A stretch of DNA of 62,458 nucleotides, counting the filler, from Rhabdomonas costata (Eukaryota): the NCBI GenBank assembly GCA_019059605.1. It is 25 parts of 25 records of this genome, joined end to end, with 100 filler letters (N's around TTAATTAATTAA, not from the genome) between each part and the next. Parts side by side here need not be neighbours in the genome. Positions count along the whole stretch, not along the records: positions 37,560 to 39,951 come from JAHMHO010003600.1; 24 more parts are not named here. One strand, 5' to 3'. A program made the translations under genes and the position numbers. Shown here piece by piece: positions 27,707 through 39,568 of this stretch. A model generated the notes under the pieces. That model did not search any database. It saw only the letters and a list, made by a program, of their open reading frames with translations, and was not told the DNA's origin. Within the stretch, counting starts at the first letter, position 1. The number at the start of each line of letters is the position of its first letter.

Positions 27707-29473
27707 CTAGAATGGTCCAATGATATGCCCACCAGGAGACACCCCAAAAGGCGCTAGGGAAGACGAAGGCCAGCGAGCACTGCCCAACAATTCATCCTCC
27801 ATCATTCCCTCGGACCTCAAGATGCGCGTCGTCTCCAACGCGAACAGGCTGCCGTCCTGGGACTTCATCCAAGAGGGAGCGGCCCCCTTGCGGCCCTTCA
27901 GCTGCCACTGCACGGCGGATTCCTCGGCCTGCCCGGGCACTTCCACCACACTGTCCACCCCTGGGAACGTCCCCACCACCCCTCCTCGCGGAAGCACGTC
28001 GGCGTCCCCTGTGTAAGAATAATGTGCGTATGCGACGGACGAGGACCATTCGAACCTAACATGGAAAATCCTATCAAAGCGTGGCAGCAACCAGCAAGGA
28101 GAGGTTCGCAGCCGCAGACATCGCGATGTCACCGAGTCGAGTTTCTCAAGCTTAAACCTCCACTATGGCTCGAAAGGTTCGGCCTTGGACCCTGGTCACT
28201 GTGAATTGTGAATCTGAGGGTACAAGTGGGCATGTTACGGGGGCAAGTCGACAGAAGGTGACAAAGTCGGACAGATGAAAGTGACGTTTCCGGAATGTGT
28301 GCAATTGTTTTAGTCCACACATAACATACCATTTCTTTCCAATACTCTGACACTGCGACTCCTGTCTGTCACAGCACAGCGCTTTACATGAAAATGTGGC
28401 ACTCCTATGCAAAAAACGCAAGAACAAACGCTCGTGTAGCACACCATGATACAGAGAAAAGTGCTGCCCAGGGGTTCCGGCCCAGCTCCACACTTCCTGG
28501 GCTGTGCCGCGGCCTGGGTCGATTCGTACTCGTACCAGACGGGAGAACGAAGGAGAGACACCAGAAAGGTTGGCGTGAAAGTTGTTGTCGAACAGGAGGT
28601 ACTCGTCAGGGGAGACACGGGTTACGGCGTGGGCGTGCCAAAACAGTCCCGTGACATCTCTTCCCTGCCTGTCCCGAAAGAGTAGAAACCACAGAGTACT
28701 TCAAAAGCTTAGCTGGGAGTGAAAAGATAAAGCGCACGCACGATCTCCGCAAAGGCATTCGGGCAGATGGCATAGAGGGGAGCGATGTGCGAAATACTGA
28801 AAAGGTGCAGAGAGAGAATTATTTCGAGTCGAACGTATTTTTGGAAGAGTCAGGCGTCAGAAGTGGATGAGAACGTGCACCCCCCTCCCCAAAAAAAAGT
28901 ACGATGCCGCTGGCACTTTTGGAAGCATCTTCAACTCGATAACTTTGAATTCCCACCTGGGTCAGGCACGTAATTATCGCGCCGGAATCCAAAGGTTTGG
29001 ATTGACGTTCACCAACCTACACTGTTGCAGCGTCTTTGAGAGCAGACTGCCTGCCGGTGAGACAAGGTGTGTTGGAAGGTGGCGGCTTTCGCTTTTTCCA
29101 CCATCTTAGCGATCGAGCGCGTAAGTGTGGTGGCCGAGTGGTCTCTGAGCAAACCTGTCGAGCATCTTTAGAGAGCCCAGCCGTCCGCATGACCAAAGCA
29201 CTCTCCCAGTAGACCGCTGCACCATAAAGAAGGTGTCCAGGTGCCGCGAATTCACCACCACGGCGTCGCCCTGTGGATCGTAGTACACGGAGTTGAAGTG
29301 CACGTAATCCACGGCCCGGGTCCCGGGAAACCGCTGCCGGAGATCCTCGCACTCGTCCCGGAAGGTGCACCTCGCGGTGTGAGCGTGGAGGTCCGACGGC
29401 GAGAACGGGATGTGTTCCAGCACAGACCAGTGCCACAACACGGAACCGGTCAGGTCAACCTCAATGAGGTCAT
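27707..29473 (-). CDS. Arylsulfotransferase (ASST)-family protein; exons 29473-29155, 28668-28445, 28008-~27707
   Basis: DLIEVDLTGSVLWHWS...DYVHFNSVYYDPQGDAVVVNSRHLDTFFMVQRSTGRVLWSCG|...FWHAHAV...LLFDN...SRLVRVRIDP...AQEVWSW...G|DADVLPRG. These are the HxNS, SRH, (Q)H, FDN and GDAxxLP motifs of ASST. Phase-compatible GT-AG introns; 3' end uncertain. Confidence 0.85.
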
Positions 29474-37077: not shown

Positions 37078-37807
37078 CTGCGGAAGCAGCACCGAAAGCG
37101 GGCTGCTTCAGCAGCGTTCCGCAATCGCGTTTCCCCTCACCTAACTCTGTGCAAGCCATCACTTCAGCCCATGACACCGCATTTCCCCTTGCCATGTCAT
37201 CTGATACGCCGTGCTTCCTTATTAGGTAAGATGTGCCGCTGAGGTTTACTAATTAAGAACCGCTGGGTCACTGATTGTCAAGACATCTCCTTGTCCAAGC
37301 CACTATATCGCTACTGCCCAATGTTGTTGGGCTGGACTGTTGCAGTCGAGGACGTTGCTATACAAAAAAATTCTGTGCCCAGTCTGGGTCACTCTCAATG
37401 GCTTTGCCACAGTGGTTGACCTTTTCGTTTTGTTGTTACCCAGTTTGACAACCCCCCACNNNNNNNNNNNNNNNNNNNNNNNNNNNNNNNNNNNNNNNNN
37501 NNNTTAATTAATTAANNNNNNNNNNNNNNNNNNNNNNNNNNNNNNNNNNNNNNNNNNNNAAAACCCAATTGCCGTGCATGCCCCATTTTACGAACTCTTG
37601 ACTTCCGTCGATAATATCATCGGTCGCAGTTGTTCATCAGCCGCCTTTTTTGTGCTAAAAAAAACTTCGGCTTTTACTGTTTTTCCTAAAACTTTTGTGA
37701 ACTTCCCCCAATTCACGAGAGAAAACGACCCACAGTGCCAACAGACAACATCCAAACGGAAAAGCATAAACAGAAATAACAAGAATGCAAAATGCAAAAC
37801 CCACGCG

Positions 37808-37864
37808 TCAGCAGAAAGGTTGTTCTCATTGCAATCGACCGCAAATTGCTCATTCTGCCATCAC
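37808..37864 (-). ncRNA. Box C/D snoRNA, U16/SNORD16/snR87-like, copy A (in RPS19 intron)
   Basis: Minus strand: GTGATGG(C)-cagaat-gagcaatttgcg(guide)-g-TCGA(D')-ttgcaatgagaacaacctttctg-CTGA(D). Confidence 0.75.
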
Positions 37865-38127
37865 TCGTCGGGTCAAAATACAAAGAAAGCAAAATAGGAG
37901 AAAAACTAACAGAAACACCATCAACCCCAATGTTAGCAGTGCCTCTACCGCACTGCCTCTACCCGTGGAAGGCGTGGGCGTGTTGCCCAAAAAAAAAATC
38001 TGGTACAATAACCCCTTGAGATGAAACATGCCAAGAGTAACACGGTGAAGCGAGCCATGTCACACACAGCTACTTCTTGTCCAATAGCAAAAGAAAAAAC
38101 GGGCGAAGCGCAAGCATTCACTGAGTG

Positions 38128-38185
38128 TCAACAGAAAAGGTTGTTCTCATTGCATTCAATCGCAAATTGCTCAGTACGCCATCAT
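38128..38185 (-). ncRNA. Box C/D snoRNA, U16-like, copy B (in RPS19 intron)
   Basis: ATGATGG-cgtact-gagcaatttgcg-a-TTGA-atgcaatgagaacaaccttttctg-TTGA. Confidence 0.7.
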
Positions 38186-38450
38186 CCAACGCGAATAAAT
38201 CCATCTCTTTCCCGACGAAAAGCAAGGTAAACAAAAGAGAAGGTTTGAATCAAAACCGTGGCCAGGAAAAGTAGAAGAAGAAGAAAAGCTCAAAAGGTCG
38301 AAATACTTCGACAGAAGTGATCTCCATCCCACGGACGCTCTTTTGAGAGCGTTTCTTCTTTCGCTGGAGAGAGATGAGCTTGGGGGGTTGGGGAAGGAGA
38401 TTCGCACCAAAACGTATGCCACACCCCACTCCACCACACCGCACATATAC

Positions 38451-38574
38451 CCTGCTTCTTCAGGTGGGCCGAGTAGACCCGGATGAAGTCCCTCGGCGCG
38501 ACATCCTTCAGCAGCACGGCGCGGCTGTGGACCTTCTTGGGCTTGTCCCCGGCGGCGGGCTTGGCAGTGGCCAT
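38451..38574 (-). CDS. RPS19: 40S ribosomal protein S19 (eS19), first coding exon
   Basis: MATAKPAAGDKPKKVHSRAVLLKDVAPRDFIRVYSAHLKKQG matches the eS19 N-terminal KDVxxxxFxxxxAxxLKKxG motif. Donor gtatat. Confidence 0.9.
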
Positions 38575-39105
38575 TTTGTCACTTTCCGAAAGGAAGGATT
38601 TTGCGAAGGAAGTGCTCCGGTGAGCGAAGGAGGCGGCTCCAAGGAATGAACGCTGGAGAGGGTGTGTGTGTGCGGCGAGCAAGCGGAGAGCGTAGGGACT
38701 GCACGACACAGGTTCACTCACAGAAGCAGTGCCCGCTGGAAGAGAAGAAAGTAAAAGAGGGGTAAGCAAGACACACGGGGTAAGCTACACATATGCCAGC
38801 CATTTTCCCACAACAAAGACAGCCCCTACATGGAGGGAAGGAACCGGTCAGCCTGCCCGTGCATCTGCGGTGTGAAACCAGTAAAAATATATGCCGCGGC
38901 ACAGATCACGGTAAGAACATTGTTGTCAATTACTAATTCGGGGGAAAAGGTAACACGCGCAATCTAACACACGCCAATTAAGAATTGGACACCTCTTTGT
39001 CTCCTTCCCGTTAGCAATGAAAAATCTCTGACCTCAATTCATCAGTAAAAAAACGAACCTTGCCATCAGATGAATGCAAAAAATGCAGAACCCAGGCGCA
39101 AAACG

Positions 39106-39162
39106 TCAGCAGAACGGTTGTTCTCATTGTAATCGACCGCAAATTGCTCATTCTGCCATCAC
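39106..39162 (-). ncRNA. Box C/D snoRNA, U16-like, copy C (upstream of RPS19 ATG)
   Basis: GTGATGG-cagaat-gagcaatttgcg-g-TCGA-ttacaatgagaacaaccgttctg-CTGA. Near-identical to copy A, including flanks. Confidence 0.75.
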
Positions 39163-39507
39163 CTCGTCGGCCGAAAAAGAAAACAAAAAGGAACAAAAAA
39201 ACAACTCGACCAGCTCCAATTTTTGCGATATCGTCGACACCGTTGACACCCAACGACACTTGTTCCACAATGGATCATGCAAAAGTTCGTAGCAACAAAA
39301 ACATCCTCCGAAAGTTATTGGCCATATTTGCGATATGAAGGTCCGTAGGTCCGTAAGTCAATTGCCACCGATCTGCTCACCTTTTTCCCGTTATCCCGAA
39401 TCTAGCGGAAAAAAAGACAATCTCACCCTTTGCTTAAAAACCAACCTCAGCCCACCACCTCGCACAGGCACGACACGCCTGGAAAAAACAGCAGAAGAAA
39501 ACAAAGC

Positions 39508-39568
39508 TCATTGAAGCCAAGAGGTTTGGTTTCATTGCGATCAGTCGCAAATTGCTCATTGCCATCAT
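39508..39568 (-). ncRNA. Box C/D snoRNA, U16-like, copy D
   Basis: ATGATGG-caat-gagcaatttgcg-a-CTGA(canonical D')-tcgcaatgaaaccaaacctcttggcttca-ATGA. Confidence 0.72.

Follow-up and report, generated by a model that had tools for sequence, protein, structure and literature searches.

The locus raises the question of what is encoded by four short repeats that lie, all in one orientation, around a short open reading frame. The window, that is, the whole stretch of 62,458 nucleotides that was analysed, consists of 25 contigs of about 2.4 kb each, which are separated by spacers of the form N...TTAATTAATTAA...N. Physical linkage to the repeats is given for the contig at 37560-39951 alone (2.4 kb). 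As a separate observation on the other contigs, a Pfam scan of 16 of their long ORFs gave only a weak arylsulfotransferase match (25.5 bits), and one 311-aa ORF proved to be without homologues.

The sequence-only reading of this DNA had described four dispersed same-strand repeats of about 57-61 nt, and these are indeed present: the four copies, designated A to D and 57-61 nt long, all lie on the minus strand of the single contig at 37560-39951 (Table 1). When all 62 kb were searched, with filters off, by means of a profile built from the four sequences, these four copies alone were returned (62-75 bits), and the match ranked next had 7.3 bits. Likewise, the scan for the 13-mer TGAGCAATTTGCG with one mismatch or fewer returned four matches, a number that was reached in 0 of 100 shuffles (shuffle mean, 0.15). 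Both the guide scan and the profile search found zero further copies in the other 24 contigs (about 60 kb). A SINE-like spread in random orientation had been named beforehand as an outcome that would speak against a snoRNA family; within the 62 kb, the profile gives four same-strand copies only. The distances between the same-sense copies are 321, 977 and 408 nt, and the whole set is contained within about 1.8 kb. All four are oriented in the sense direction of a 42-codon exon, with copies A and B located 3′ of this ORF and copies C and D located 5′ of its ATG. Another element (E, 39072-39030) was considered as a fifth copy and was rejected, being undetected by the four-copy profile.

Table 1. 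Positions of the four copies, their boxes and the neighbouring gene features, in window coordinates
Feature	Position	Strand	Details
Copy A	37808..37864	-	57 nt from box C to box D; profile 75.1 bits
Copy A, box C GTGATGG	37864-37858	-	sequence reading
Copy A, guide TGAGCAATTTGCG	37852-37840	-	sequence reading
Copy A, D′ TCGA	37838-35	-	sequence reading
Copy A, C′ AATGAGA	37830-24	-	followed by spacer ACAACCTTTCTG
Copy A, D CTGA (canonical)	37811-08	-	sequence reading
Copy B	38128..38185	-	profile 71.0 bits
Copy B, box C ATGATGG	38185-79	-	guide at 38173-61
Copy B, D′ TTGA	38159-56	-	C′ AATGAGA at 38151-45
Copy B, terminal D variant TTGA	38131-28	-	canonical CTGA absent
Copy C	39106..39162	-	57 nt; near-duplicate of A; profile 73.3 bits
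Copy C, box C GTGATGG	39162-56	-	guide at 39150-38
Copy C, D′ TCGA	39136-33	-	C′ AATGAGA at 39128-22
Copy C, D CTGA (canonical)	39109-06	-	sequence reading
Copy D	39508..39568	-	61 nt; most diverged; profile 62.4 bits
Copy D, box C ATGATGG	39568-62	-	guide at 39558-46
Copy D, D′ CTGA (canonical)	39544-41	-	C′ AATGAAA at 39536-30
Copy D, terminal ATGA	39511-08	-	CTGA absent; sequence reading
Probable first coding exon, eS19 (RPS19)-like	38451..38575	-	ATG at 38575; 42 codons; GC3-rich
Exon end AG/GTATAT, phase 1	donor GT 38450-38449	-	sequence reading
Presumed intron 1, open-ended	37560..38450	-	at least 891 nt; holds B and A; donor visible; leaves the contig
Polypyrimidine tract and AG (tttactttcttctcttccAG)	38736..38755	-	160 nt upstream of the ATG; sequence reading only

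The box C/D class of RNAs is characterized by a box C (RUGAUGA) near the 5′ end and a box D (CUGA) near the 3′ end, and further by an internal pair of D′ and C′ boxes, by an antisense element of 10 nt or more that stops beside D′, and by a terminal stem through which C and D are brought together. In all four copies, box C reads RTGATGG; six of its seven columns are invariant, and the last position is G, not A. Exactly one nucleotide past the invariant 13-mer, all four copies carry a D′ box (NNGA), which takes the consensus form in copy D only. The earlier description of an RTGATGG box C, an invariant TGAGCAATTTGCG and a D′ box one nucleotide further on is thus confirmed in every copy. The C′ box (AATGARA) lies 4 nt past D′ throughout, as AATGAGA in three copies and as AATGAAA in D. 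A terminal D box had also been assigned to each copy, and this is correct in part: the UGA core is found in all four, while the canonical CTGA is restricted to A and C, the ends of B and D being TTGA and ATGA, respectively. Copies A and C exactly fit the pattern RTGATGN-46 nt-CTGA, with a total length of 57 nt.

A clear difference is seen between the boxes and the spacers in the degree of conservation. The invariant columns amount to 25 of the 27 in boxes C and C′ and the guide, as compared with 9 of the 22 in the spacers (Fisher p = 1.3e-4), in agreement with the divergence of the spacers that had been noticed from the sequence. The pairwise identity within the core ranges from 39 to 54 of 54-56 positions, and that of the flanks is roughly 40-60%. 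The cores of A and C are identical at 54 of 56 positions, and their likeness runs on into the 3′ flank. Copy D differs from A or C at 14-15 of the 54 core positions, with the guide and box C unchanged. In the MFE folds, a terminal stem occurs in A (interrupted) and in D, and none occurs in B or C; the lowest z value was -1.55 (copy A), which is not significant, and the folds did no better than those of shuffled sequences. The fold of copy D places a 6-bp stem (CAAGGC/GCUUUG) on both sides of its GGGA...AUGA ends.

The information on the rRNA segment facing the 13-mer, together with the +5 rule, which is well established for guides of the box C/D type, provides a clue to the target. The 13-nt guide is a perfect complement of the segment CGCAAAUUGCUCA in the SSU rRNA of an environmental eukaryote. 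This rRNA (L013) is a metagenome contig identified as eukaryotic SSU rRNA (365 bits) and serves as a proxy from another organism; since it was retrieved by searching for the guide complement, its 13-nt match holds by construction. In this segment, the universal CGCAAAUUACCCA appears in its local form. The segment aligns with the universal GCGCGCAAAUUACCC and, in the Rfam eukaryotic SSU alignment, with the consensus GCGCGcAAAUUaCCCAAU. The universal consensus alone guarantees 8 contiguous guide pairs (CGCAAAUU), and our reading presupposes that at least CGCAAAUUGC would be present in the organism's own SSU rRNA.

On both L013 and the Rfam consensus, the pairing partner of the first A of CGCAAAUU is the fifth nucleotide upstream of D′. 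The A selected in this manner is position 438 of the Rfam SSU model and corresponds to yeast A436 at an offset of +2, a value set with the aid of Cm414, Am420 and Um578, which it fits as well (for the sites in yeast, see PMC5199042). The sequence-only reading had arrived at the same A, namely yeast Am436 and human Am484, and its register holds. This target is the site of snR87, U16 and AtU16 (PMC8817022, Table 1), with the equivalence of CD8 included (PMC3542256, Table 4). The target predicted here, which is the first A to follow GCGCGC in the 5′ domain of the SSU, is shared by snR87 of yeast, SNORD16 (= U16) of human, AtU16, CD8 of Dictyostelium, PFS11 of Plasmodium and Me-Eh-SSU-A431 of Entamoeba, for which the site is numbered Am436, Am484, Am438, Am432, Am442 and A431, respectively (PMC8817022, PMC3542256). 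It is methylated in yeast, human, Arabidopsis, Dictyostelium, Plasmodium and Entamoeba (PMC8817022, PMC3542256), and no T. brucei counterpart for this SSU site is given in a comparative table of 2012 (PMC3542256).

In snR87 and U16, an accessory rRNA pairing beside the target is reported to accompany a conserved off-consensus D′ (van Nues et al. 2011, PMC3116282), and the present copies have plausible counterparts of both. The sequence CAACCTT of A and B complements AAGGTTG, a segment of L013 that precedes the target by 10 nt; 506 of 20000 shuffles match as well as this. By eye, copy C keeps 5 of the accessory pairs, and copy D has 7 with a bulge. Through the conserved ACAACC past C′, the RNA would probably gain accessory base pairs with the AAGGUUG that lies 10 nt upstream of its target. 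The possibility that another methylation guide precedes box D was also considered and was rejected: the region in question varies among the copies, and its sole nearby rRNA complement starts at position 5.

The searches for relatives gave the following results. Rfam returned no match at the gathering score over the 62 kb; the best one was to snoU83D at 18 bits, as compared with a gathering score of 55, and is regarded as sub-threshold noise. The Rfam models SNORD16 and snR87 had been proposed as a check on the U16/snR87-type assignment, and neither recognises the copies, being absent even at E ≤ 10 (2.4-kb contig; 86 nt). Since these models are silent, we refer to the RNA as a functional counterpart, and not as a demonstrated member, of the SNORD16/snR87 family. 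In metagenomes, at least 120 loci were matched by the guide or by its complement. Among the matches listed, one was an SSU rRNA (L013) and three carried a C-box-like motif upstream; these three had no downstream CTGA, and no snoRNA homologue was found among the matches listed. When box C and the guide were sought in combination, the genome contigs (7 loci) and the viral contigs (13 loci) gave unrelated bacterial or phage coding DNA only. A literature search for the guide string found no paper.

We also examined the exon around which the copies are arranged. Residues 20-42 of its peptide, as compared by eye with residues 4-26 of human RPS19, are identical at 11 of the 23 positions, where the human N-terminus was taken from PMC5827021 and bioRxiv 10.1101/2023.02.22.529597. 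At E ≤ 10, Pfam returned no families for the peptide, Ribosomal_S19e (PF01090) included, and PDB returned no chains with either the 42-aa or the 28-aa query; with 42 residues, these tests are weak. No matches were obtained when the longer proteins of a 5.8-billion-protein library were searched with the peptide. The representatives of a 1.84-billion-protein library provided two matches, which were rejected as long low-complexity proteins (1402 and 3381 aa) that fit the basic N-terminus. For the previous designation of the gene as RPS19, the by-eye identity to the human N-terminus is the evidence at hand, and Pfam, PDB and the two large protein libraries give it no support. As a side observation, the peptide has no PDB chain match although a full ribosome model of Euglena gracilis with 34 SSU proteins has been published (PMC7672448). 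If the chain concerned includes its N-terminus in that model, the window probably does not derive from E. gracilis.

The exon ends at a consensus splice donor, and the minus-strand frames, read as far as the contig extends, contain no eS19-like continuation. The copies had been described as two intronic and two upstream ones. Their positions relative to the exon agree with this description; the term intron, in turn, is founded on the donor GT alone, because exon 2 and the acceptor are off the contig. On the upstream side, the polypyrimidine tract with its AG may serve as a 3′ splice or trans-splice acceptor, in which case C and D would belong to an outron or to a 5′UTR intron.

Ribosomal-protein genes that host snoRNAs, and clusters of snoRNA isoforms, are classical arrangements, and box C/D snoRNAs accumulate as stable small RNAs in a particle with fibrillarin, Nop56, Nop58 and Snu13. 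Judging from the sequence features, we interpret the four copies as isoforms of a single, compact box C/D snoRNA that has a ribosomal-protein gene as its host, with a probability of about 0.72. The family itself is very probably a genuine box C/D isoform family with a ribosomal-protein host, and its arrangement around the exon is ordinary for eukaryotes. After excision of the first intron, copies A and B would be freed from it through debranching and trimming by exonucleases to the snoRNP, and C and D would be freed from the RNA upstream of the strong 3′ splice-type site, either a trans-splicing outron or a 5′UTR intron. The stable RNA would most likely derive from A and C, which have the canonical CUGA, and B (UUGA) and D (AUGA) may be weaker. 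In the snoRNP, fibrillarin would then 2′-O-methylate the first A of the target segment, as predicted by the +5 rule.

Other interpretations were weighed against this one. The copies might constitute an independent polycistronic cluster of isoforms that has its own promoter and no dependence on host splicing, and the short eS19-like ORF among them might be a pseudo-exon or be unrelated. The lack of database support for the eS19 label and the location of exon 2 off the contig would be consistent with this, the same-sense spacings resemble those of a loose cluster, and the guide snoRNA genes of Euglena and trypanosomatids are clustered and polycistronic, according to PMC7671301 and PMC2784804. 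Nevertheless, we consider it unlikely, given that the ORF has an ATG, a strong GC3 bias, a terminal AG/GTATAT donor and the above identity to RPS19, and that the copies are all sense to the ORF and lack regular tandem spacing.

The loss of CTGA in B and D and the off-consensus D′ of A, B and C, along with the non-significant folds and the silence of Rfam, could instead indicate decayed snoRNA-derived repeats (pseudogenes or SINE-like elements) that are not processed into functional guides. The guide and box C are, however, invariant in all four copies despite the differences that separate D from A and C, which is unexpected under neutral decay. In addition, there are zero copies in the other contigs, and neither poly-A tails nor target-site duplications were seen at the copies on reading the sequence, and hence decay appears improbable to us. 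Still less probable, to the extent that we give it hardly any weight, is a real box C/D RNA whose 13-nt element is aimed at an LSU rRNA, an snRNA or an mRNA instead of the SSU site. The guarantee of only 8 contiguous pairs by the universal SSU consensus leaves room for such a target, but the match sits exactly on a site methylated across six eukaryotes and in the right register for D′, and a natural SSU rRNA (L013) bears the full 13-nt complement.

The isoform family, with its probable ribosomal-protein host, can be compared with several known systems. The host of vertebrate U16 is a ribosomal-protein gene. Vertebrate U16 is intron-encoded, as indicated by the title of Caffarelli 1996, a study cited in PMC8817022. 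The copies are effectively single-guide RNAs, a likeness to the snR87/U16 group. They differ from snR87 and U16 in that sequence-model similarity was undetectable (no Rfam match at E ≤ 10), that the guide is suited to an rRNA variant with GCUCA, and that the RNA is much shorter (57-61 nt) and is represented by four isoforms at one locus. The occurrence of several same-sense isoforms of one compact RNA within such a short distance is reminiscent of the clusters of Euglena gracilis and trypanosomatids, which yield isoforms, as stated in the introduction of PMC7671301 and in section 11 of PMC2784804. Here, by contrast, the spacing is irregular, and the copies are distributed on both sides of a protein-coding exon instead of forming a tandem array. 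Several snoRNAs in one host intron, as presumed here, are also found in the intronic clusters of plants and Chlamydomonas and among the intronic snoRNAs of animal ribosomal-protein genes. Such snoRNAs are processed from the spliced-out RNA, according to the introduction of PMC7671301 and the title of its reference 15. Unlike in these systems, two of the four copies precede the start codon, and the splicing and processing are those predicted from the sequence.

It is possible, albeit doubtful, that the source is a euglenid or some other trans-splicing euglenozoan and that the locus represents the first U16/snR87-type guide in the phylum, and the first there to come from both intron 1 and an outron or 5′UTR intron of a ribosomal-protein gene. 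If this is true, the production of an rRNA-modifying RNA would be coupled to ribosomal-protein expression in a lineage thought to be limited to free-standing polycistronic clusters, and two rRNA changes specific to the lineage (ACCC>GCUC and GGAAGG>GGUUGG) would be accompanied by co-evolution of the guide and of the accessory element. The locus opens no new mechanism. It adds an unannotated guide for a very widely conserved rRNA ribose methylation, in a eukaryote that is poorly sampled and whose assembly is fragmented, and it is a compact example of isoforms spread across an exon by local duplication, as A and C are nearly identical on opposite sides. If the host is a euglenozoan, intron- or outron-hosted snoRNAs would exist alongside the free-standing clusters of the group, and the locus would provide a tidy case of co-variation between a guide and its rRNA.

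Copies A–D, the four minus-strand repeats of 57–61 nt, all lie within the single contig at 37560–39951, and only this range is physically linked to them. The window is composed of 25 contigs of 2392–2407 bp each, placed longest first, with 45–55% GC and 100-nt spacers (N...TTAATTAATTAA...N) at the joints; because separate contigs are joined, adjacent "genes" are not genomic neighbours. Our conclusions are based on 2.4 kb of DNA, public collections and papers. Among 16 long ORFs of the other contigs, the sole Pfam match was a weak one, to arylsulfotransferase (PF05935; 25.5 bits versus a cut-off of 24.2), in an ORF fragment at 28152–28700 (minus strand), and a homologue search with a 311-aa ORF elsewhere in the window found none.

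Features of the snoRNA-bearing contig and their coordinates
Feature	Position	Strand	Characteristics
Copy A	37864–37808	minus	RTGATGN, then canonical CTGA; 57 nt in all
Copy B	ends at 38128	minus	terminal TTGA at 38131–38128
Copy C	39162–39106	minus	RTGATGN, then canonical CTGA; 57 nt in all
Copy D	ends at 39508	minus	terminal ATGA at 39511–39508
ORF between copies B and C	ATG at 38575	minus	42 codons; nearly every third position G or C; ends CAG G|GTATAT
20-nt pyrimidine tract + AG	38755–38736	minus	between copy C and the ATG; candidate acceptor

A repeat search recovered the four copies as a family with a 35-nt core (83–100% identity to the reference copy) and with spacings of 321, 977 and 408 nt between successive members. 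The putative guide, the 13-mer TGAGCAATTTGCG, occurs four times at ≤ 1 mismatch, against a mean of 0.15 after shuffling (0 of 100 shuffles reach four), and box C and the 13-mer occur together three times, against 0.00 expected. R1, a sequence-only profile built from the four copies, was run over the 62,458 bases with filters off: it matched the four copies alone (62.4–75.1 bits), the runner-up reaching 7.3 bits (E = 0.28). Since the profile finds only the four copies, and in view of the shuffle counts, the family described in the sequence-only reading is real and local and, within the 60 kb sampled at least, is not a dispersed repeat of the common kind.

RNAs of the box C/D class are organized in the order C, antisense element, D′, C′, spacer and D, and variation is tolerated in the spacers. 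In the minus-strand alignment (n = 4), every copy has the box C RTGATGG, followed after a variable gap of 3–5 nt by the 13-mer, which is invariant in all four. One variable nucleotide later stands a D′-type box, four letters ending in GA (TCGA, TTGA, TCGA and CTGA in A, B, C and D, respectively); a 4-nt linker leads to a C′-type box, AATGAGA in A, B and C and AATGAAA in D, and then to a spacer of 12–18 nt that starts with ACAACC (CCAAACC in D). All copies end in NTGA. The earlier claim that each carries a terminal D box thus holds in canonical form for A and C only: CTGA was not found at the 3′ end of B or D, which have TTGA and ATGA there. Of the 27 columns that make up the boxes C and C′ and the 13-mer, 25 are invariant, versus 9 of 22 spacer and linker columns (Fisher p = 1.3e-4), and between copies 39–54 of 54–56 core positions are identical, against roughly 40–60% in the aligned flanks. 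Although 14–15 of 54 core positions of copy D depart from A and C, its box C and its whole 13-mer are intact, which argues against neutral decay. The order and spacing of the elements, as read from the alignment, are those of the box C/D class, and the copies vary where the class tolerates variation; the anatomy originally proposed is upheld in this respect. Predicted folds have terminal stems in A and D, in D a 6-bp stem (CAAGGC/GCUUUG) directly outside the terminal ATGA; such stems are absent in B and C, and no z-score is below − 1.55. A weak fold signal is usual for box C/D RNAs.

Copies A and C are 85% identical over 84 nt (37781–37864 versus 39079–39162), reaching into the 3′ flank, and this likeness across the exon points to gene conversion or duplication that was both local and recent. 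An element at 39030–39072 (minus strand), a short way 3′ of copy C, consists of TGATGGCAA, 13 nt and ACTGAT, with the box spacing of the 5′ half of copy D and a different 13-mer (GGTTCGTTTTTTT). No D box follows it, and R1 gives no match there; the element may be a paralogue in decay whose guide was exchanged, or it may have arisen by chance.

In box C/D guides, the fifth nucleotide upstream of D′ marks the partner of the methylated nucleotide. This is U in each copy, and its partner is the first A of 5′-CGCAAAUU-3′. Metagenome contigs were scanned for the complement of the 13-mer, which gave at least 120 loci. One of those listed, L013, is an SSU rRNA gene of a eukaryote (365 bits) with the sequence GGCAGCAGGCGCGCAAATTGCTCAAT; the other 119 listed are chance-like matches, three with a C-box-like motif upstream, and no CTGA was found downstream in these three. 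The 13-nt match of L013 exists by construction, as the contig was picked by the complement search, so that its informative part is the place of the match and the existence of such an SSU variant; it is the SSU of another organism, and only eight pairs (CGCAAAUU) are guaranteed against the universal consensus. Its segment aligns under the Rfam SSU consensus GCAGCAGGCGCGcAAAUUaCCCAAU, the first A being model position 438. An offset of +2 places the yeast 18S methylations Cm414, Am420, Am436 and Um578, as listed in PMC5199042, on consensus C416, a422, A438 and U580, while offsets of +1 or +3 would place Cm414 on U; the predicted target therefore corresponds to yeast A436 (human Am484), as the sequence-only reading had it. 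The L013 SSU is divergent, with ~340 nt extra before the target region relative to yeast numbering, and its upstream spacer (minus strand) contains a long direct repeat, in which a block starting tttctctctggactggagcttctct... occurs twice, ~870 nt apart (2397–2270 and about 1530–1400).

Table 1 of PMC8817022 gives the guides for this position: snR87 for A436 of yeast, U16 for human Am484, AtU16 for Am438 of Arabidopsis and CD8 for Am432 of Dictyostelium. Table 4 of PMC3542256 assigns Plasmodium PFS11 and Entamoeba Me-Eh-SSU-A431 to the same site and lists no T. brucei counterpart. Copies A–D would be the functional counterpart of snR87 and U16, with the same predicted SSU site. The Rfam search suggested earlier for SNORD16 and snR87 recognized neither: the whole window gave no match at gathering score, and at E ≤ 10, with 2.4 kb or 86 nt searched, both families were absent, the best match being snoU83D (18.2 bits versus a gathering score of 55). 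The copies are therefore classed as a functional counterpart only.

A second methylation guide upstream of box D is implausible, as this region varies (CCTTTCTG, CCTTTTCTG, CCGTTCTG; longer and different in D) and the sole near-target rRNA complement begins at position 5 from box D. The ACAACC with which the region starts is conserved, and in A and B the string CAACCTT complements AAGGTTG of L013, which stands 10 nt upstream of the target. Of 20,000 shuffled spacers, 506 reach a complement of 7 nt no further than 40 nt from the target on either side; over the whole 1165-nt SSU piece, runs of this length turn up often (1320 of 5000 shuffles). According to van Nues et al. (PMC3116282), additional pairing next to the methylated site is conserved in snR87 and U16, and the element described here resembles it; in single-guide snoRNAs they locate such elements at a distance from box D, within the second guide region, and they note that the D′ of snR87 is conserved but non-consensus. 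The CAACCTT/AAGGTTG match is suggestive, not proof, of accessory pairing of this kind.

The proposed RPS19 host was recognized neither in Pfam nor in the PDB (no family, and no chain for 42- or 28-residue queries, at E ≤ 10), nor among the longer proteins of a 5.8-billion-protein library; 1.84 billion protein representatives gave just two long low-complexity proteins. Since a complete Euglena gracilis ribosome model, with 34 SSU proteins, has been published, the absence of any PDB match is weak evidence against E. gracilis as the source. Residues 20–42 of the 42-codon ORF and the N-terminal residues 4–26 of human RPS19, as given in a table of PMC5827021 and in bioRxiv 10.1101/2023.02.22.529597, are identical by eye at 11 of 23 positions, including KDV, F-x-R and LKK-x-G. 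The ORF is likely, though short of demonstrated, to be an eS19 (RPS19) exon. No eS19-like continuation was found 3′ of the donor in any frame up to the contig end, so the putative intron, with B and A inside it, spans 891 nt or more and is open-ended. Copies C and D may lie in an intron or outron, if the candidate acceptor serves in cis- or trans-splicing. The putative 5′-UTR also has a consensus donor, GTGAGT (38721–38716, minus strand), and 60 nt later ctctccAG (38654–38653), possibly a 69-nt mini-intron (38653–38721) or an alternative acceptor.

In genome and viral collections, box C plus the guide was found only in unrelated coding DNA. Thirteen viral contigs (L128–L140) share an identical 22-nt string matching both, inside an apparent single conserved phage gene, with no relation to the snoRNA. 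The guide string was not found in the literature searched, which did not include the primary Euglena snoRNA papers; their supplements may bear on whether a guide to this position, or copies within introns, have already been published. According to PMC7671301, snoRNAs in ribosomal-protein gene introns and intronic isoform clusters are a classical feature of animals, plants and Chlamydomonas; there and in PMC2784804, guide snoRNA genes of Euglena and trypanosomatids are described as clustered and polycistronic. As judged from their sequences, the four copies are very probably true isoforms of one box C/D snoRNA, an ordinary family that had not been annotated before and that is probably eS19-hosted. 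The family would gain in interest if the organism is a euglenozoan with trans-splicing, its euglenozoan nature being an assumption of the sequence-only reading, and if copies C and D derive from an outron.
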